This document shows positions 2-23,818 of a stretch of DNA of 24,688 bases, piece after piece (position 1 is the first letter of the stretch; each line of letters starts with the position of its first letter). Position numbers and translations under genes: made by a program. Source of the DNA: a virus. Lineage: Duplodnaviria; Caudoviricetes. The stretch lies in the IMG/VR virus record IMGVR_UViG_3300035135_002966, positions 1 through 24,688 of that record; one strand, 5' to 3'. The notes beneath the pieces were generated by a model, which was not told the origin of the DNA, ran no database searches, and saw only the letters and a program-made list of their open reading frames with translations.

Positions 2-862
2 AGAGATTTTTTGGACAGTCTTAAAAGTTTGATCTGGACATGCTTTTCTGAAATAGTGCAGAATAGATTGATCATCATTCCAAGAAAATTTACTTATTTT
101 ATTTACACCTAAACGATATAACTTTTCCACCATTTGATATTTAGAATCAGTCAGTTTTGCTACGTAATAACCAAATACCTGCGGAATACAAATACCACTC
201 TTGTCTTTCCACCACTCGTCAACAGAGCATCCTTTAGCGACTTGGCCCACAAAGGCAGGCAACTCAGACCTGGGTATGCCGAGCCTTTTGCAGTGTTCCG
301 AGAGAGTCATAAACACAGCCGCATTGTATTTGCCGTCCGCAAGCATCCAGTTATCAGGCTTGTTCTTGTTCCAGGCTTCGCAAAGGTCTTTCCAAGAATC
401 TTTAGGATCAATCCCGGTTGGCTTCTGATTTGGCTTTTCCTCTACAGCATTACGGATCGTAAAGTCATCGGGCTGTGGCGCTTTCTTGACTGGCTCAAGA
501 ATATCAGGTGGTTCCTCTTTGACCTTCTCAAGCGGCTCAGGAGCGACAGGAGTCTCCTTCTCGACCTTCTGAATTTCATCATATGCCCAAGGAAATAAAA
601 GTCTATGTCCATCTTCAGATTCTTCTAGGTAACCCTTGGCCTTCAACCCTCTAATTGAGCGCAGCAGGGAGGTGTATGGGACAGAAAAGATACTGGCTAT
701 TTCCACAAAACCTCTGCGGAAAAGCTTGTAGTCGCGACCGAAGCAAATCGATTCAAGCTGACACCAAGTCAATCTTTCCTGAGGGGTCAGTTCATTCGCA
801 AAGAGAATCTCGTTTGGGATTTTTGAGAACTGACATGTTGCGTTCCATGGTTCCAGCTTCAT
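2..862 (-). CDS. Putative phage replication initiator (N-terminal winged HTH, lambda-O/replisome-organiser-like); 3' end truncated by window edge
   Basis: Hand translation from ATG at 862 is open to the window edge (>=287 aa): MKLEPWNATCQFSKIPNEILFANELTPQERLTWCQL...EIASIFSVPYTSLLRSIRGLKAKGYLEE, then a Pro/Glu-rich linker and a C-terminal domain. The F-x-x-IPN..L..ER..HTH..L..KGYL pattern is typical of phage initiators, and the gene abuts the iterons. Missing from the ORF track because it has no stop in the window. Confidence 0.75.
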   Translation of the reverse strand, partial: MKLEPWNATCQFSKIPNEILFANELTPQERLTWCQLESICFGRDYKLFRRGFVEIASIFSVPYTSLLRSIRGLKAKGYLEESEDGHRLLFPWAYDEIQKVEKETPVAPEPLEKVKEEPPDILEPVKKAPQPDDFTIRNAVEEKPNQKPTGIDPKDSWKDLCEAWNKNKPDNWMLADGKYNAAVFMTLSEHCKRLGIPRSELPAFVGQVAKGCSVDEWWKDKSGICIPQVFGYYVAKLTDSKYQMVEKLYRLGVNKISKFSWNDDQSILHYFRKACPDQTFKTVQKIS

Positions 863-942
863 CTTGATCCAAAAAGGACTTGCGGGCGACCCAGAAAGCT
901 TAGAGACCAATCCTGGAAACGCATCCATCAATTTCAGGAAAC

Positions 943-958
943 GGTATCGGTTGCTACC
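943..958. promoter_or_regulatory. NtcA-type operator (GTA-N8-TAC) within an 8-bp inverted repeat
   Basis: GGTATCGGTTGCTACC: GTA 944-946, N8, TAC 955-957, inside AAACGGTA...TACCGTTT (939-962). Its reverse complement matches 22615-22630 at 14/16. Confidence 0.55.
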
Positions 959-964
959 GTTTTA

Positions 965-993
965 TTTCCATATATGGTGACCACATATGGAAA
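965..993. repeat. 29-bp near-perfect palindrome adjacent to the iterons
   Basis: TTTCCATATATGGT-G-ACCACATATGGAAA, 13 of 14 pairs complementary. Confidence 0.85.
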
Positions 994-1100: not shown

Positions 1101-1232
1101 CCGACTCTATATATACAAGACTTTTACTTAAGACCATAAAAGAAAAGACTCTTAAGGAATACGTCGGAGCAAGACGGTCAAAATCGGTTCAAAAGGGGGA
1201 AGGAAAACTAAAGCCATCGAAAACGGAAGAGA

Positions 1233-7634: not shown

Positions 7635-8273
7635 ATGACAAGTGATCCAAACAGTTGGCCAGAATCAAAGGCAACAGTAGCTCCTGGCCCTATTTGGAAT
7701 TTTACTCGTGGCTATGTTGTAGAAAAAGCTGGGAGACACGAAAACGAAAAACAATTTCGTGCATTTACTTTTTATCTAAACTCTGGCGATAATCGAAATT
7801 ATGTTGATACCGCCAAGTTTGCAGGCGTAGGTACTAGCACCGTTCACAAGTGGGCTCATACGTATAACTGGGACCGGAGGTGCGCGGCTTACGACAAGAA
7901 AGAAATGGCAATAGCTTTCAAAGAAGCTAGCAAATTACGGCGACAGGCACACCGAAAAGATATCGATGACTTCCGTAAAGCTAATGAAGAACAAGCCCGT
8001 CTGATGATGGGAGTCAGTTCTGATTTGATGGGAGTTATTCAAAAAAAGATCGCTAAATTAGAAGAAGAAGGAGAAGAAGTTCCTCTACATCTTGTTTCTG
8101 GCCTGCTTCGTGCTGCATCAAACATTTCCGATTCTGGCAGACAGGCTTGGGCAACCTCTCTTGGTGTTAATGAACTTATGTCAGTTGTAGAACAGGAGAT
8201 TGAAGAAGTACAAGTAGAAATCATAGATGAAGAAGTCGATGAAGCTTACGAAATCCCATTGGATGAGGAGTAA
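7635..8273 (+). CDS. terS: Putative terminase small subunit
   Basis: HTH YVDTAKFAGVGTSTVHKWAHTYNWDRRCAAYD followed by a coiled coil; TAATG-coupled to terL. Confidence 0.7.
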   Translation: MTSDPNSWPESKATVAPGPIWNFTRGYVVEKAGRHENEKQFRAFTFYLNSGDNRNYVDTAKFAGVGTSTVHKWAHTYNWDRRCAAYDKKEMAIAFKEASKLRRQAHRKDIDDFRKANEEQARLMMGVSSDLMGVIQKKIAKLEEEGEEVPLHLVSGLLRAASNISDSGRQAWATSLGVNELMSVVEQEIEEVQVEIIDEEVDEAYEIPLDEE

Positions 8274-10804
8274 TGTCAGTAAAATACGGTAATGACTACC
8301 TTGAGTTTGCGGCAAAAGGCCAGCAGCTTATCAAGGAAGTAAAAACTAAAAAAGCAAACCGAGGAACAAACAAACGTGTCATTCTCTGGAAATTCATCAA
8401 AAAGGTTTTTCCAAACTACAAATTCTACAAATTTCATGCAACTGTTATTCAGCAACTTCAAAGAGTCCTTGACGATGGCTGTAAAAGGATCATCTTGCAG
8501 GTCCCACCTCGCCATGGTAAACTAGCAGCCCATTCCACCCCTATCCTGACTTCAAAAGGTTGGACAACTCACGGCCAACTTCGAGTGGGTGACAGGGTTT
8601 TTCACCCTTCTGGCCGACAGGTAGAAGTTGTCGCGCTTTCTCCTGAGGTTCAATCAAACGCTCGGGTTCATTTAGGTAATGGCGAGACAATTGAGTGTCA
8701 TTTGAATCACGAATGGACCGTTTACGACCGTGGGCGGCACAAGTGGAGAACCGTAGAAACCAGCGAGCTAGTGGAATGGAGCAAGCTGGGCGCGGAACGG
8801 GCTCGGTATCAGCTACCTGATGTTGAGGCGCTGCAGTTCGACTCAAAGGATTTAGTGATGAATCCCTACGTCCTGGGTGTGTGGCTGGGGGACGGTCGCA
8901 CTAATTCCAACTCCTTTTGCGGAGCTGAGGCCGACAATGCTATTGCTGATGCTATTGAAGATTGCGGCTATAAAATCACCAGCAAGAATCAACAGAAGGA
9001 AACAGGGGTTTGGTATTACATTCTTGATGGTCAGCGAACTGGGGGTGATGGCCGGTTCAGTCGTGAGCTAAAGGTCCTTGGGGTTCGCCGCAATAAGCAC
9101 ATCCCCGAGAGCTATCTCCGCTCTTCCATTCCCCAGCGCCTGCGCCTCCTAGCAGGTCTTATGGATACCGATGGCAACATGTGCCCTAAGACGGGGCGGG
9201 CACGAATTGTGACGGCTTCTGAGCGGCTTGCAGAGGACATCATGGACCTATGCACCACTCTTGGCTTCCGCCCATACTTGACGAGTCAGGAACCTTATCT
9301 ATCGAGTAGTGGCATCCAAGGTAAGTCCACTGTTTATACCGTTAATTTTCAGCCAAACCTTGAAATTCCTTGCACTCTTGAAAGAAAACGTGTCAAGCGC
9401 CACGCTGTCAGACGCAGAATCGGAATTGCCTCTGCGGAGGTTACGTTGGATGGGGAGATGGGACGCTGCATCCAAGTATCTTCGCCTGATGGATTGTACC
9501 TTGTCGGAAAGAAATTAAATGCAACACACAACTCTCTTCTTGCTTCGCAGCTTTTGCCTGCTGCTTACTTGTTGGCTCATCCTGATCGTTACGTCGGAAT
9601 CAGTAGCTACTCAGCAGAACTTGCCGAAGGGTTCTCCAGGAAGGCGAGAGAATATTTTCGTGAGGGCGGCGGACTGATCAGTGCCAGCAGTCAAGCCGTC
9701 AACGCATGGGGAACCGAGGCTGGTGGTGGTCTCTGGGCTGCCGGTGTGGGCGGTGCCATCACTGGTCGGTCTGGTCATCTACTCATCATCGATGACCCTG
9801 TCAAAAACAGGGAAGATGCTGAGAGTGACAGAATGATGGAAAAGCTTAATGATTGGTACACATCCACTCTCTATACTCGCCTGGAGCCCAAAGTAGGTGC
9901 AATCGTCGTCATTCAAACGCGTTGGTCCGAAAATGACATGATTGGACAGCTCGTTGAAAACGAATTTAACGTTTCCGAGAAAGGACGTGAAGATTGGACT
10001 ATCGTGGACCTTCCAGCACTTTACGAGGATCCCGATGATAGACCAAAGCTTCCTGCCCACTGTGAAACCATTCCCGATTGGCGAGAAGAAATCGGAGAAG
10101 CTTTGTGTCCGCAGAGATACAACCAAGAAGACTTGGAGCGTATTAGGGAGGCTATTGGAAGTCGGGATTTCGCATCGCTCTATCAACAACGTCCTGCTCC
10201 CGATGGGGGCAATATGTTTAACCCGAACTGGTGGCAATATTACGATTGGGATACACCGTTGCCGCCGTTTCAGCGTGTCATCTTATCAGTTGACTGTACG
10301 TTTACAGATAATAAAAAAAGTGATTATGTCGTTGGGGCTGTCATTGCCCAAGCGGGTGCGAGGTTCTATGTACTGGACTTGGTCAGAGAGAAGCTAGACG
10401 TACTGGGTACGATGGCAATGATTTCAAGGATGTACAAAAGACACCAATTGTCGGGTACGATCATTGAGCTAGCAGCATCTGGCTATGCTGTCTATCAAAT
10501 GATGCAGAAAAAAGTACCTGGGCTAATTGGTTTTAAGCCAGATAAGAGCAAGGAATCAAGAGCAGCCAGTGTCGTGCCCATGGTAGAAGCTGGGAATGTT
10601 TATTTGCCAGCAAGCGAAGCCTGGCTTGACTCATTCATTAATGAATTTAACCTGTTCCCCGCTTCTAAAAATGACGACCAAGTTGATGCTATAACAATGG
10701 GTTTAAATTATTGCACGCAAAGAACTTCTCCTCAACTAACGCAAGTGACATGGGGTAGAGGAATTAAGCCAATAATTGATACAAAACATGAAAGAACGTG
10801 GTAG
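8273..10804 (+). CDS. terL: Terminase large subunit with intein (843 aa precursor, 506 aa spliced)
   Basis: Walker A PPRHGK|S split by the intein, Walker B LLIIDDP, QTRW coupling motif, nuclease residues ILSVD and NDDQVDA. Confidence 0.96.
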   Translation: MSVKYGNDYLEFAAKGQQLIKEVKTKKANRGTNKRVILWKFIKKVFPNYKFYKFHATVIQQLQRVLDDGCKRIILQVPPRHGKLAAHSTPILTSKGWTTHGQLRVGDRVFHPSGRQVEVVALSPEVQSNARVHLGNGETIECHLNHEWTVYDRGRHKWRTVETSELVEWSKLGAERARYQLPDVEALQFDSKDLVMNPYVLGVWLGDGRTNSNSFCGAEADNAIADAIEDCGYKITSKNQQKETGVWYYILDGQRTGGDGRFSRELKVLGVRRNKHIPESYLRSSIPQRLRLLAGLMDTDGNMCPKTGRARIVTASERLAEDIMDLCTTLGFRPYLTSQEPYLSSSGIQGKSTVYTVNFQPNLEIPCTLERKRVKRHAVRRRIGIASAEVTLDGEMGRCIQVSSPDGLYLVGKKLNATHNSLLASQLLPAAYLLAHPDRYVGISSYSAELAEGFSRKAREYFREGGGLISASSQAVNAWGTEAGGGLWAAGVGGAITGRSGHLLIIDDPVKNREDAESDRMMEKLNDWYTSTLYTRLEPKVGAIVVIQTRWSENDMIGQLVENEFNVSEKGREDWTIVDLPALYEDPDDRPKLPAHCETIPDWREEIGEALCPQRYNQEDLERIREAIGSRDFASLYQQRPAPDGGNMFNPNWWQYYDWDTPLPPFQRVILSVDCTFTDNKKSDYVVGAVIAQAGARFYVLDLVREKLDVLGTMAMISRMYKRHQLSGTIIELAASGYAVYQMMQKKVPGLIGFKPDKSKESRAASVVPMVEAGNVYLPASEAWLDSFINEFNLFPASKNDDQVDAITMGLNYCTQRTSPQLTQVTWGRGIKPIIDTKHERTW
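8522..9532 (+). mobile_element. Class 3 intein (337 aa) with LAGLIDADG homing endonuclease in TerL Walker A
   Basis: Starts LAAHSTPILT and ends ATHN|S; WCT triad present (block B NHEW, block F RCIQV, block G THN); endonuclease motifs VLGVWLGDG and LLAGLMDTDG. Confidence 0.92.
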
Positions 10805-15197: not shown

Positions 15198-18100
15198 ATG
15201 CAAGAGTTTCGAGATACAGCACCTTCTGCCGAAACCGTGTTCCTCCGTACATATAGCCGCCGCAAAGAAGATGGCACTAGGGAGAATTTTCAAGAGGCGA
15301 TGACCCGGACCATTGACGATATTGGCCGGATCGGTAAATTCACGCCAGAAGAACATGAGCTGGTAATGGAACAGGCATTGGAGCAACATGCCTTTCCGTC
15401 TGGCCGTGCATTTTGGGTAGCAGGTACAGAATGGGGTAAAAAGCCTGAGAACTTCAGTGGCTACTACAACTGTACGAACACTCATATTGAGGACCTGGAA
15501 GCGTTTGGCTTAATGGTTGATCTTGCAATGCAAGGTTCTGGGACAGGGGCCGTCTTGGAACAAAGGGTAATCCGTAAGCTACCTACAATTGCTCGACGAC
15601 TCAGTATTAAAAACATCACATCAGTAGGGGATAAACCTGGAAACCCAAAGACAACTTATCTGTCTGATAATGATGCTCTCTGGATTCGTGTTGGCGATTC
15701 TCGTAAAGGTTGGGTTGACGCTTATATGGCTTTACTTTATGAGTCGGTAAATCTACTTCCTCAGAATCCTCTTGATGTTTATATCAATCTTCAAGAGGTA
15801 AGGCCGTCAGGAGAGCCTCTGAAGGGCTTTGGAGGGACTGCTAATCCAATCAAGCTGGAAGCTATGTTCCGGCGCGTTGTAGACGTTCTCAATGGCGCTA
15901 ATGGCCGTCAGTTGACAAGTATTGAAGCTTGTCTGTTGATTGACGAAGCTGCTGCATGTGTTGTAGCCGGAAATATTCGCCGCTCCGCAGGTATGCGTCA
16001 GTTCAGCGATTATGACCAGGAAGCCGCAACAGCTAAACAAGGTCTTTATACACAAGACGAAGAAGGAAATTGGAAAGTTGATCCGGTCAAAGAAAACCTA
16101 CGTATGGCAAACCATACAAGGTGTTACCATACAAAGCCTTCTTTTGAAGACGTAAAAGACGCAGTTAGCAAGCAGTTTTATAGTGGAGAAGGTGCCATTC
16201 AATATGTACCTGAAGCAATTGCAAGAGCGAATGTTGACCTTCTCGATACAGCAGCTCTGAAGAAAGAATTTTTGGATACGTATGTTAATGACGGCAGGGA
16301 AGAAGCTAGGGAATATTTGAATACCGTTGCGTTGAATCGTACTGAGATTTTATCTGATTGTGAACTATCGCATCGCATGGATCGGTACGGACTTAACCCA
16401 TGCCTGACAGGCGACACTCCGATCTTGACTGTTCACCAAGGCGTCAAGACTTTTGAGGAGCTAGCCAAGGCTGGTAAAGACGTGCTGGTATGGTGTGTTA
16501 ACAAGGAAACGAACGAAGCTGCCGTCCGCATGATGCGCAATCCCCGCGTCACTGGCTACGATCAGCCCATCCTTGAAGTGAAATTCGACAGTGGGCTTAA
16601 AGTCCGCGCTACGCACAACCACAATTTCTTTACGCTGCAGCGCAATAAGGTGCAGGCGAAAGATCTTAAGATCGGACAGTCCGTCTCGGCTTTCGCTATC
16701 CATCAGCATCGCGACGGTCACCTTCGCATTACTCGCAACAACAAGCTGACCGACTCCGTTCGCCAGCAATTCTGCCATCGGGTAATTGCCGAGTACCACG
16801 GCATTAAAGGTGAGGTGATCCATCATATCGATGGGGATCCCACCAACAATCTACCCAAGAACCTTGAGGCAACCACACATCTTGAGCACAATCAGGAGCA
16901 CTACGCCGACCGCTGCCGCAATGGCTTCTTCCACGGCACCCCTGGCCCCGTTGCCGCAGAGCACATAGCCAACCATAAGGTTGTCGCTATCCGTGATGCA
17001 GGTACTGCGACCGTCTACAACGGAACCGTTGACGAGCACCACAACTACGTGGTTGTTGATCCATCCTCGGTGGGAAAGAGCCTTGTCTCTGGCATTCTGT
17101 CCGCCAACTGTGGTGAGATATGTGGTCGCGACTTCCACTGCAACCTTTCAGAAGTCCATCTGAACACAATTGATCCAGCCGACAATGAAGCACAAACACG
17201 GGCTTTCTATGCTGCAGGCTTACAGGTTGCTGCATTACTCCAACACGAATTCGTTCATGAAAGATACCAGTACTCTCGGGAAATCGATCCAATTGTTGGT
17301 GTCAGTTTTACTGGTTTGTTTGATTTCCTCGTACATGCTGGCGGAAGTGCTTGGTTAGAGTGGATGATGAATGGTCGGCCCAAAGGCAGGGCTGCCGATG
17401 CGTTTTCCGCAATGGAACGCAATTATCTTCAGCGTTGGCGTCGTGCTGCGATTCGTGGTGTTCGCGAATACTGCGAAAAACACGGCATCCGCATTCCCAA
17501 CCGCATCACCACGGTACAGCCAGCGGGCACCAAGTCCCTACTGACTGGAGCCTCCTCTGGTTGGCATCCACCCAAAGCTCAACGTTTCATTCGGAGAATC
17601 ACTCTTGGCGTTAAAGATCCTCTCGTACCTGCTCTTATTGAGCATGGCTATTCAGTCATTCCTGCCCAGTCCGCTAGGGATGACGATGGCAATCTTCTTG
17701 TTGACATTAGTGACCCTAGAGTTCTTGAGGTGCTCGTGGAAATCCCGACCGAAGTAAGCTGGGCGAACCTGCCTGGGTGCGACAGGTTTGACCTAAGCAA
17801 ACTTAGCGTAAAGGCACAATGGGGTCTTTATATGCAGGTTCAGAACAATTACACTGATCACAACACTTCTGCAACCATTGAAATGCGAGAATGTGAAATC
17901 GACACTTTGTCGGAGCTGATCCACACAAACATTGATAAAAATGGTGGATACATTTCTGCGGCATTGTTGGCACGCTTTGATGCTAACGAAACCTTTCCTC
18001 GCCTTCCTTTTGAACCTATTTCTAAAGAAAAATATGACAAGCTCATGAAGGTTCAAAAAGCTTCTCGCCTTGGCGATGATCGAACCTTGCTTGAAATACT

Positions 18101-18203
18101 AAAAAAATATGATAGTGAAGACTGGACCATTGAATCTGTTGCTGGCTGCACAAATGCTGCCTGCATTGCTAAAGCTGAAGCCGAAGAGCGGGAGGGTAAG
18201 TGA
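15198..18203 (+). CDS. nrdJ: Class II (adenosylcobalamin-dependent, RTPR-type) ribonucleotide reductase with intein (1001 aa precursor, 765 aa spliced)
   Basis: FPSGR, YNC, CVVAGNIRRSA, NP|CGEI, FHCNLSE, TTVQPAGTKSLL, C-terminal GCTNAAC. Confidence 0.96.
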   Translation: MQEFRDTAPSAETVFLRTYSRRKEDGTRENFQEAMTRTIDDIGRIGKFTPEEHELVMEQALEQHAFPSGRAFWVAGTEWGKKPENFSGYYNCTNTHIEDLEAFGLMVDLAMQGSGTGAVLEQRVIRKLPTIARRLSIKNITSVGDKPGNPKTTYLSDNDALWIRVGDSRKGWVDAYMALLYESVNLLPQNPLDVYINLQEVRPSGEPLKGFGGTANPIKLEAMFRRVVDVLNGANGRQLTSIEACLLIDEAAACVVAGNIRRSAGMRQFSDYDQEAATAKQGLYTQDEEGNWKVDPVKENLRMANHTRCYHTKPSFEDVKDAVSKQFYSGEGAIQYVPEAIARANVDLLDTAALKKEFLDTYVNDGREEAREYLNTVALNRTEILSDCELSHRMDRYGLNPCLTGDTPILTVHQGVKTFEELAKAGKDVLVWCVNKETNEAAVRMMRNPRVTGYDQPILEVKFDSGLKVRATHNHNFFTLQRNKVQAKDLKIGQSVSAFAIHQHRDGHLRITRNNKLTDSVRQQFCHRVIAEYHGIKGEVIHHIDGDPTNNLPKNLEATTHLEHNQEHYADRCRNGFFHGTPGPVAAEHIANHKVVAIRDAGTATVYNGTVDEHHNYVVVDPSSVGKSLVSGILSANCGEICGRDFHCNLSEVHLNTIDPADNEAQTRAFYAAGLQVAALLQHEFVHERYQYSREIDPIVGVSFTGLFDFLVHAGGSAWLEWMMNGRPKGRAADAFSAMERNYLQRWRRAAIRGVREYCEKHGIRIPNRITTVQPAGTKSLLTGASSGWHPPKAQRFIRRITLGVKDPLVPALIEHGYSVIPAQSARDDDGNLLVDISDPRVLEVLVEIPTEVSWANLPGCDRFDLSKLSVKAQWGLYMQVQNNYTDHNTSATIEMRECEIDTLSELIHTNIDKNGGYISAALLARFDANETFPRLPFEPISKEKYDKLMKVQKASRLGDDRTLLEILKKYDSEDWTIESVAGCTNAACIAKAEAEEREGK
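16401..17108 (+). mobile_element. Intein (236 aa) with HNH endonuclease, inserted at the RNR thiyl-radical cysteine
   Basis: Starts CLTGDTPILT, block B ATHNH, HNH HRVIAE...IHHIDGDPTNNLPKNL, block F VYNGTVDEHHNY, ends SAN|CGEI. Confidence 0.93.
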
Positions 18204-22381: not shown

Positions 22382-22588
22382 ATGATGTTCCACACATTTG
22401 ACCTTTTTCTTAATCGCCCTGCCTATACTGCACCTGTCACTCCTATCTACGTGATGTCTGACAGCGATTACAAAAAGCGGCTTGACCGCCAAGACCAACT
22501 TCACATTCAAGCACTTGAATCCAGGAAAGCAGAACATGAAAAAATGATTAAGTCAATTGATGCTGAACTTGAAAGGATGAAAACATAG
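22382..22588 (+). CDS. Small coiled-coil protein (68 aa)
   Basis: F..FD.F....P...IYVMSDS followed by a coiled coil, resembling small picocyanobacterial/cyanophage proteins as recalled; GGCAACTTAA 26 nt upstream. Confidence 0.7.
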   Translation: MMFHTFDLFLNRPAYTAPVTPIYVMSDSDYKKRLDRQDQLHIQALESRKAEHEKMIKSIDAELERMKT

Positions 22589-22597
22589 CGGTATAAT
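22569..22597 (+). promoter_or_regulatory. Near-consensus sigma70 promoter
   Basis: TTGAAA (22569) -17 nt- TATAAT (22592); predicted TSS ~22604. Confidence 0.8.
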
Positions 22598-22606
22598 ATG
22601 GGTAAG

Positions 22607-22668
22607 CGTTGAATGGTAGCAACAGCTACCATTGCAGTCCATCCCAAGCCATGCAACGGGGACTTGGG
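22607..22668 (+). ncRNA. Glutamine-II (Downstream-peptide)-like riboswitch
   Basis: P1 CGTTG(22607)/CAACG(22654); P2 ATGGTAGC/GCTACCAT; conserved-like TGCA; pseudoknot CCCAAG(22643)/CTTGGG(22663); lies between the promoter and the GGAG RBS of a YRG-motif peptide. Confidence 0.7.
22615..22630. promoter_or_regulatory. NtcA-type operator coincident with riboswitch P2
   Basis: GGTAGCAACAGCTACC: GTA 22616, N8, TAC 22627; about +13 to +26 from the predicted TSS. Confidence 0.5.
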
Positions 22669-22685: not shown

Positions 22686-22862
22686 ATGAACTTCCTGTCT
22701 CTGATCAAAGAGCAGCAAACTCGGCGTAATCGTTTGAGTGCTGCTCAGCGCCTGATGGCAAAAGCCTACAGAGGTGTTGAGTACAAAGAGCCATTTACCG
22801 AAAATCCCAAAGGTAATTACGAGCTTATGTACCGAGGGCACAAACACGTTGTCAAAAACTGA
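22686..22862 (+). CDS. DUF4278-like YRG-motif peptide (58 aa)
   Basis: MNFLSLIKEQQTRRNRLSAAQRLMAKAYRGVEY...ELMYRGHKH with two YRG motifs; RBS GGAG 22675-22678; real start is ATG 22686, not the track's 22632. Confidence 0.8.
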   Translation: MNFLSLIKEQQTRRNRLSAAQRLMAKAYRGVEYKEPFTENPKGNYELMYRGHKHVVKN

Positions 22863-22868
22863 ATTTAG

Positions 22869-22895
22869 GACCCCTATCAAGGGGTCTTTTTTTTT
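22869..22895 (+). terminator. Strong intrinsic terminator closing the riboswitch cassette
   Basis: GACCCCT-ATCA-AGGGGTC plus T9. Confidence 0.9.
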
Positions 22896-22941
22896 GTCCT
22901 GACTACACTTAGGGAATCCTATTGTATTGAATAGCTGACAA

Positions 22942-23115: not shown

Positions 23116-23149
23116 GTCCTCGCTATACTGGACTAGATGATGCAGTTTG

Positions 23150-23818
23150 ATGGATTGGAAGGACAAACATCGTGAAAGAATCAAAGAATATAGAAGGGCA
23201 CAACAGGCTGAGTATTATGAAAGAAATAAAGAAAAGTTAAAGGCACAACAGGCTGAGTATCGTAAAAATAACAAAGAAAAGATAGCTGAGTATCGTGAGA
23301 GAAACAAAGAAAAGATAAAGGCAAAAAATGCTGAGTATCGTGAAAGAAACAAAGAAAAGATAAAGGAACTGAATGCTGAGTATCATGAAAGAAACAAAGA
23401 AACGCTAAGAGAACGAGACGCGCGTCGTCAATCTGCAAAACAAGCTCGCAAATTTTCCTTAATACAACAATTAGGAGGCAAGTGTGTGCGATGCGGAGAG
23501 GATCATCTGCTCGTTTTGGACTTTCATCATCAAGATCCATCAGCTAAGGAAAATGAAGTACCTAAATTACTAAATGCAGCTAGTAAATATAAAGAAGCAC
23601 AGGAAGAAGCTCAAAAGTGCATCCTGCTTTGCTCTAACTGCCACCGGAAAGAGCATCACGAACTTTCATGGCTTGCAAACTTCCCAGGCTCTGACCTTTA
23701 TATTTGCCCTTGGGAACATTCTGCCTTTACAAAAAAGAAGACAAAAGAAAAGCAAGAGCAAGAGATGGAAGTATTTATTGATACACAATTGAACTATTCA
23801 GCACCATACCTAACATGA
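23150..23818 (+). CDS. HNH endonuclease with N-terminal AEYxERNKEK repeats
   Basis: GGKCVRCG...LDFHHQDP...KCILLCSNCHRKEH zinc-HNH; five charged helical repeats. Confidence 0.88.
   Translation: MDWKDKHRERIKEYRRAQQAEYYERNKEKLKAQQAEYRKNNKEKIAEYRERNKEKIKAKNAEYRERNKEKIKELNAEYHERNKETLRERDARRQSAKQARKFSLIQQLGGKCVRCGEDHLLVLDFHHQDPSAKENEVPKLLNAASKYKEAQEEAQKCILLCSNCHRKEHHELSWLANFPGSDLYICPWEHSAFTKKKTKEKQEQEMEVFIDTQLNYSAPYLT
23207..23410 (+). repeat. Coding tandem repeat (45/33-bp units)
   Basis: GCTGAGTAT at 23207, 23252, 23285, 23330 and 23375. Confidence 0.85.

Follow-up and report, generated by a model that had tools for sequence, protein, structure and literature searches.

Two NtcA-type boxes of a Synechococcus siphovirus, one beside a putative iteron origin and one within a glutamine-II riboswitch

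We analyzed a 24.7-kb stretch of phage DNA (IMG/VR record IMGVR_UViG_3300035135_002966; the whole stretch, positions 1 to 24,688, is called the window here). Its recombinase, initiator and gene order match those of S-CBS2 and S-CRES1-3, identifying it as a fragment of an S-CBS2/S-CRES-like Synechococcus siphovirus; it covers only about one-third of the phage genome, and about 9.8% of it is non-coding. Two boxes in the window, both in non-coding DNA and close to predicted promoters and start sites, fit the GTA-N8-TAC core of the cyanobacterial regulator NtcA. Site 1 lies between five iterons and the predicted promoter of a replication initiator gene, whereas site 2 lies inside a glutamine-II riboswitch. 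The explanation that we favor, with a probability of about 0.45, is that the two sites are separately selected NtcA operators, of which site 2 would repress the gene for a short peptide and site 1 would raise initiator transcription under nitrogen shortage. The features around site 1 are as follows.

2..862, minus strand: 5′ part of the replication initiator gene, with its ATG at 862; the gene continues beyond the left end of the window
897..925, minus strand: predicted initiator promoter, with the −10 TAAGCT (902-897), a 17-nt spacer and a weak −35 GATGCG (925-920); predicted start at about 890
944..957: site 1, NtcA-type box GTATCGGTTGCTAC, with A/T palindromic flanks (939-962)
965..993: 29-bp palindrome formed by two inverted copies of TTTCCA-N4-TGGT; absent from the sister lineage L007
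996..1100, plus strand: five iteron-like direct repeats with an 18-bp core and a period of 21-22 bp
1106..1145: A/T-rich tract containing TATATA, where unwinding may occur; relatives have a similar tract beside their repeats

The features around site 2 lie near the other end of the window.

22569..22597, plus strand: sigma-70-type promoter TTGAAA-17-TATAAT, an 11/12 consensus match; predicted start at about 22604
22604..22668, plus strand: glutamine-II riboswitch aptamer RF01704 (Rfam 45.4 bits against a gathering score of 33; E 3e-8)
22616..22629: site 2, NtcA-type box GTAGCAACAGCTAC, forming the core of the P1 stem-loop, whose arms span 22612-22620 and 22625-22633
22686..22862, plus strand: gene for a 58-amino acid DUF4278-like (IF17-like, YRG) peptide (phrog_545, E 9e-15; 57% to S-CBS2 gp99)
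22867..22897, plus strand: intrinsic terminator-like hairpin that closes the riboswitch cassette

Read on the minus strand, positions 943-958 are GGTAGCAACCGATACC, and positions 22615-22630 are GGTAGCAACAGCTACC; the two are 14/16 identical, and in these coordinates and this identity the initial annotation was correct. The identity is not significant alone, as runs that similar number 115 (direct) and about 90 (inverted) in the window, and 63 and 72 in one shuffle. Because such pairs are common, we rejected it as evidence of a link between the sites. Plain GTA-N8-TAC was not enriched either (5 matches in the window, the other three in coding DNA, compared with 2.41 expected; 10 of 100 shuffles reached 5). 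The initial annotation had also pointed to the rarity of a pattern with eight fixed bases, GTAnC-N4-GnTAC. It does occur twice in the window compared with a mean of 0.09 in dinucleotide shuffles, none of 100 of which held two, but the pattern was picked after the sites were known.

We therefore turned to an independent matrix built on 13 distinct host boxes, a match lying further upstream having been dropped. These boxes came from 38 cyanobacterial-titled loci among 121 pattern-matched genome loci; a GTA-N8-TAC box lies 13-30 nt 5′ of the glutamine-II aptamer in 31 of the 38. Scanned over the window, the host-only matrix ranked site 2 first (21.2 bits) and site 1 second (16.0 bits), in agreement with their earlier designation as NtcA-type boxes. 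The score of site 1 was reached in 0/200 shuffled windows with the host matrix, in 2/200 with the viral matrix and in 4/200 with the combined matrix, and no site in the whole genomes of S-CBS2 and S-CRES1 scored as high with the host matrix. The site 2 14-mer is identical to the host boxes of loci L098 and L108, and the site 1 14-mer matches those of L149, L162 and L190 at 13 of 14 positions. Both sites carry the C5/G10 pair, the guanine of which is contacted by NtcA R191 (PMC11850224). The box of Prochlorococcus MED4 has been described as a perfect NtcA site overlapping the transcript start (PMC6212724).

The proposed origin and initiator beside site 1 were supported by the iterons and by an initiator homolog. 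The initiator is 22-31% identical to the 'DNA replication protein' of S-CRES1 and S-CRES3 and to S-CBS2 gp57, and in all three phages a helicase gene follows the homolog. It had no match to Pfam or PHROG profiles; its feature-atlas matches include Phage_rep_O and HTH_36 clusters (0.96). We rejected a longer reading frame starting at 931 or 928: a 1-base loss at position 871 in five of eight strain-level contigs breaks this frame, and the 91%-identical protein P0002 begins at the same Met, so we placed the start at 862. No RNA record listed covers positions 700-1400. From the repeats and A/T tract at 996-1145 beside this gene, we infer an iteron replication origin. Iteron origins with an adjacent initiator are known (lambda O type, P1 repA, pSC101), with DnaA and IHF as their host-factor sites. 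The window's putative origin resembles them in its direct repeats beside an HTH initiator gene and its A/T tract, and in most relatives the repeats reach the initiator promoter. It differs in that its extra site matches a nutrient-sensing regulator.

Site 1 has perfect 8-bp arms, with a mismatch at box positions 4/11, and lies 38 bp from the first iteron core. On the minus strand, TAAGCT is the only TAnnnT 10-59 nt from the box. The promoter to which it belongs aligns with TACACT/TGCG in the sister, and a TAnnnT occupies the corresponding position in relatives. In the 29-bp palindrome, the listed strain differences affect the central base, 979, alone. TTTCCA-N4-TGGT itself occurs three times in the window (906-919, 965-978 and 980-993), with all three copies flanking site 1. 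A repeat loop formed by the three copies around site 1 is weakened as a candidate by mutation of one copy in strains and by absence of the motif from the sister.

Conservation of site 1 was followed across 22 distinct origins (the incomplete L220 and L224 were left out), which have their own repeats at the position of the window iterons. A box between the repeats and the initiator gene was found in two, the window and L007, of which L228 is a near copy. The initiators of these two are sisters (41% identity, 97/96 clade support). Site 1 is kept at 12 of 14 positions in the sister, and no other pair of 14-mers from the two spacers matches better (chance about 6e-4); the iterons and flanks differ. 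Changes fall mostly at free positions, position 11 being C, T (strain contig X14) or A (L007). Site 1 is unchanged in strain contigs X3, X4, X8, X10 and X11, and in X14 only free position 954 is altered within it among the listed differences; this strain comparison is weak evidence at 93-98% identity, and some differences of X12 and X14 lie outside those listed. Elsewhere, a low-scoring GTA-N8-TAC lies beyond the repeats in L197, and L201 has one inside the next gene. Among searches for initiator relatives, a single-protein search of viral contigs and a genome scan gave none, and a metagenome scan gave one locus, the near copy of L007.

The window and L007 also share about 100 bp more between the A/T tract and the start codon than most relatives, whose repeats extend nearly to a −10, in many cases one with a TG extension. 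In L211, a long insert between the repeats and the initiator start contains four TGTGGAAA words, which we take to resemble DnaA boxes; this lineage may have acquired sites for host factors at the corresponding point of its origin.

Outside these origins, the best match to the 41-bp site 1 region among 50,697 phage records was intergenic, in Synechococcus phage Sf-FR1 (E 4e-3). The identical 14-mer (L323 1507-1520) lies there at −51.5 of TTGCCA-17-TATAAT, before unannotated small genes. The Sf-FR1 match stands alone, and its genome shows no enrichment of the pattern (5 compared with 6 in the control). A genome scan for site 1 with its long arms was uninformative, as two of 80 listed loci were cyanobacterial, both Nostoc.

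Site 2 had been presented as an operator in non-coding regulatory DNA. Both sites do lie outside the major ORFs and site 2 is box-like, but it sits inside the riboswitch rather than simply upstream, and its identity as the P1 hairpin and its position downstream of the predicted start had been missed. The aptamer begins seven bases 3′ of the promoter, placing site 2 at +13 to +26. In the predicted pseudoknot, 5′ CGUUG pairs with CAACG, a two-sided change from CGUUC/GAACG of the model. The conserved aptamer bases all lie in the pseudoknot and the sequence of P1, named here as in the crystal-structure paper, is free (PMC6698751). As a stem, P1 leads one to expect a palindrome at site 2, yet not this particular sequence.

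Among 27 distinct other viral aptamers, a box lay within 70 nt upstream or straddled the start in 16 and was wholly in P1 in none. Targeted searches, from which no frequency can be derived, gave four more phages with the box as P1: L240, L260 and L315 score 43-46 bits, and L246, at 28.1 bits, falls short of the cut-off. Each lies on a contig with a portal 46-72% identical to that of the window, and the box flanks differ; the four may share one origin. In one riboswitch search, 64 of 68 matches were not riboswitch-like by eye, and L250, which was checked, had no Rfam match. A search of 185,579 genomes for a box in P1 followed by the standard tail, a pattern that tail variants escape, gave two matches, neither cyanobacterial. 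Pairing at the inner positions was kept in 5/5 embedded boxes compared with 5/12 upstream viral boxes (Fisher p 0.044). In S-CRES1 (L005 1198-1259), the same P1 stem has N7 spacing, and a separate box lies at −32. Across the family, the box drifts from before the aptamer through straddling to inside it (L005, L241, L238/L239), and P1 also contains N7 and longer, decayed forms. Because NtcA represses syr6 of Synechocystis from +16 (PMC5714215), +13 to +26 is a workable position for a repressor. On these comparisons, site 2 is likely a dual-coded element, serving as both a repressor operator and a riboswitch helix.

The initial annotation had joined the two sites as twins linking the origin to the glutamine cassette. 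This link was not upheld in 11 lineages compared in both the origin and riboswitch regions. An origin box occurred in 2/11 and a strict riboswitch-side box in 7/11 (the window, S-CBS2, S-CRES1, G004, G007, G010 and G017), six of which have none at the origin; both occurred only in the window. The riboswitch-side boxes lie at varying positions, and those of S-CBS2 and G017 are weaker, their GTA half being the −10 itself. The sister has the origin box, but its riboswitch (L235/L236, tied to L007 by overlapping contigs, one join at 94% identity) lacks one. Since both boxes occur in 1/11 lineages, we rejected a conserved twin arrangement, and the sites are best seen as independent matches to one regulator.

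According to the favored explanation, 2-oxoglutarate-loaded NtcA would bind site 2 at low nitrogen and block transcription, and at high nitrogen glutamine would switch the riboswitch RNA on, following logic like that of host gifB. An ancestor of the window phage and its sister would have gained the extra 100 bp or so between the iterons and the initiator gene, moving the initiator promoter away from the iterons. With no TG extension of the kind common in relatives at its −10, and with a weak −35, this promoter would receive activation from NtcA bound upstream of the −35. Sites 1 and 2 would be alike because one protein reads both. NtcA likely binds both sites and nitrogen control of phage replication is plausible, judged from sequence; activation at site 1 is uncertain and is the weakest step.

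Several observations weigh against this explanation. The matrix derives from one promoter family, mostly Prochlorococcus, and its boxes were not experimentally validated. In 20/22 origins the box is absent (best matrix score, 5.3 bits), so conservation of site 1 rests on two lineages; in the sister, moreover, one half of the box no longer has G10, and the box reaches just 6.6-12.7 bits. On the riboswitch side, there is no strict box in the sister, S-CRES3, L242, L244 or L245, and the pairing contrast loses significance when host boxes are added (15/25; p 0.14). The geometry at site 1 is also not that of class II promoters, as no TAnnnT lies 20-23 nt from the box on either strand. The distances to a TAnnnT are 41 nt on the minus strand and 15 nt on the plus strand in the window, and 38 and 51 nt in the sister. 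A candidate promoter on the plus strand, whose TATGGT follows site 1 by 15 nt, was rejected because the sister does not keep it. In Synechocystis, 71% of NtcA-activated sites lie at −41/−44 and repressed ones range from −69 to +83 (PMC5714215), and NtcA was not seen to contact the RNA polymerase alpha subunit in the class II structures discussed in PMC11850224.

The initial annotation had placed site 1 close to the class I activation position. Class I activation by CRP is centered at about −61.5 or −71.5, with helical phase kept. TAAGCT at 902-897 and the center of site 1 at −60.5 from it (gap 41 nt) proved correct, but the sister box is at −57.5 from the aligned −10 TACACT (with TGCG 17 nt upstream), a 3-bp shift that counts against the explanation unless the second, TG-extended −10 TATCCT is used (−70.5). 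This shift weakens class I activation. Thus the regulatory sign at site 1 is uncertain, given the lack of class II geometry and the values of −60.5 in the window and −57.5/−70.5 in the sister. Activation rather than repression is narrowly favored because the box lies clear of the initiator promoter, which is weak.

A bolder statement of the favored explanation, which we offer only tentatively, is that a host NtcA operator at the origin-initiator junction would form a carbon/nitrogen checkpoint on replication, and that relatives would have fused operator and riboswitch helix in the same 14 bases, read as DNA by NtcA in starvation and as RNA by the glutamine aptamer in plenty.

It is unlikely, although several facts speak for it, that the same operators act with the opposite sign at site 1. 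NtcA would then repress or remodel the initiator promoter, either by blocking the upstream element region or by bending DNA so that proteins bound to the palindrome or iterons reach the promoter, and both sites would shut genes in starvation, delaying replication. Repressed NtcA targets extend to −69 (PMC5714215), NtcA bends DNA by about 80 degrees (PMC11850224), the aligned promoter of the sister does not preserve helical phase, and two TTTCCA-N4-TGGT copies 74 bp apart have site 1 at their midpoint. However, the box overlaps neither the −35 nor the −10, there is little to gain from repressing a weak promoter, and the promoter-proximal TTTCCA-N4-TGGT is mutated in X14 and X8, with the motif missing altogether from the sister.

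We consider it quite improbable that site 2 is an RNA hairpin only and site 1 a palindrome that arose by chance or survives as a relic (a copied hairpin, for example) and that no protein binds today. Hairpins are inherently palindromic and no particular sequence is required of P1 (PMC6698751); the P1 hairpin persists in S-CRES1 at N7 spacing, site 1 and its flanks resemble the P1 of L246 (17/20 by eye), and 935-998 is predicted to fold into two strong hairpins. Pairing, however, leaves unexplained the exact identity to host boxes, loop included, and the N8 spacing in five phages. Moreover, the sister keeps the box at site 1 but not the hairpin (z +0.8), and site 1 has its mismatch at positions 4/11.

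Another protein reading both sites is very doubtful. A phage repressor had been suggested initially; a different host CRP-family regulator, such as PtrA, could be substituted. As only about one-third of the genome is covered, a phage regulator could lie outside the window, and the perfect 8-bp arms of site 1 exceed what NtcA requires. These long arms are not kept in the sister, and the same 14-mers occur in host promoters and in the unrelated large Synechococcus phage, making a host binder more likely than a phage repressor. We give no better odds to site 1 as an architectural part of the origin, at which NtcA would bend DNA beside the iterons in the manner of IHF and gate firing directly: the first iteron core is nearby, and the DnaA-box-like words of L211 suggest a zone that gathers host-factor sites, but the box faces the promoter and not the A/T tract, which lies at the opposite side, its distance from the iterons differs between the two lineages, and 20/22 origins do without it.

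Most parts of this arrangement are known. An NtcA-repressed glutamine-II riboswitch/DUF4278 (IF17-like) unit has been described in marine picocyanobacteria, for example Prochlorococcus MED4 WP_071812974/PMM1846 (PMC6212724, PMC6316151), and glutamine riboswitches are known from a few phages (PMC9004378). The window shares with the host unit a sigma-70 promoter, a GTA-N8-TAC box near the start, RF01704 and a short YRG peptide. In contrast to the host boxes, which precede the aptamer, that of the window is inside it as P1. The predicted window peptide scores only 16.7 bits against PF14105 (DUF4278), below the gathering cut-off of 25.3, and is hence called DUF4278-like only. Class II NtcA-activated promoters have the same box consensus and A/T-rich outer flanks (PMC3898017, PMC5714215), whereas site 1 is at −60.5 rather than −41.5, with no TAnnnT 22 nt downstream.

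NtcA sites have been predicted in 16 T4-like cyanomyoviruses, with 1-16 per genome (PMC3037559; repeated in PMC9083009). These are likewise intergenic GTA-N8-TAC boxes, proposed to exploit host 2-oxoglutarate signalling, but in myoviruses, and the text consulted places none at an iteron origin or initiator promoter (PMC3037559). In the literature that we searched on NtcA (with origins, cyanophages and class I promoters) and on riboswitch-operator overlap, we found neither an origin-side box nor a box as riboswitch P1 described. Thus NtcA boxes in cyanophages have been predicted before, and what appears new is two placements built from known parts. Much of the ocean is nitrogen-limited, and the question is how cyanophages sense the nitrogen state of their hosts. 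The earlier cyanophage sites are myovirus motif predictions (PMC3037559); here there are two specific sites with comparative support. If the favored explanation is true, site 1 could tie phage DNA replication to 2-oxoglutarate, as a choice between starting now and waiting, and site 2 would represent compact dual coding of a transcription-factor operator and a riboswitch helix in five phages. The cultured relatives S-CBS2 and S-CRES1-3, which lack the origin box, are possible natural controls.

Some further observations concern similar words and neighboring genes. A GTA-N8-AAC word recurs by eye about 45-65 nt before the aptamer in host and viral riboswitch promoters (e.g. L090, L108, L190, L031 and L015) and is possibly a second, imperfect NtcA site. 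In the sister, a GTA-N8-TAC lies just after the portal gene (G015:C1:2853-2866, L317), with no counterpart in the window. An HNH endonuclease gene (23147-23818), whose N-terminal part is a run of repeated AEYRERNKEKIK-like units, directly follows the riboswitch cassette. The GTA-N8-TAC at its 3′ end (23771-23784) ranks third in the window with the viral and combined matrices (12.6-14.0 bits); it lies 30 bp before the ORF at 23815, by eye with no class II −10. Among the other genes, the large terminase (8273-10804) has a LAGLIDADG-like insertion, and the class II ribonucleotide reductase (15198-18203) contains an intein with an HNH domain.
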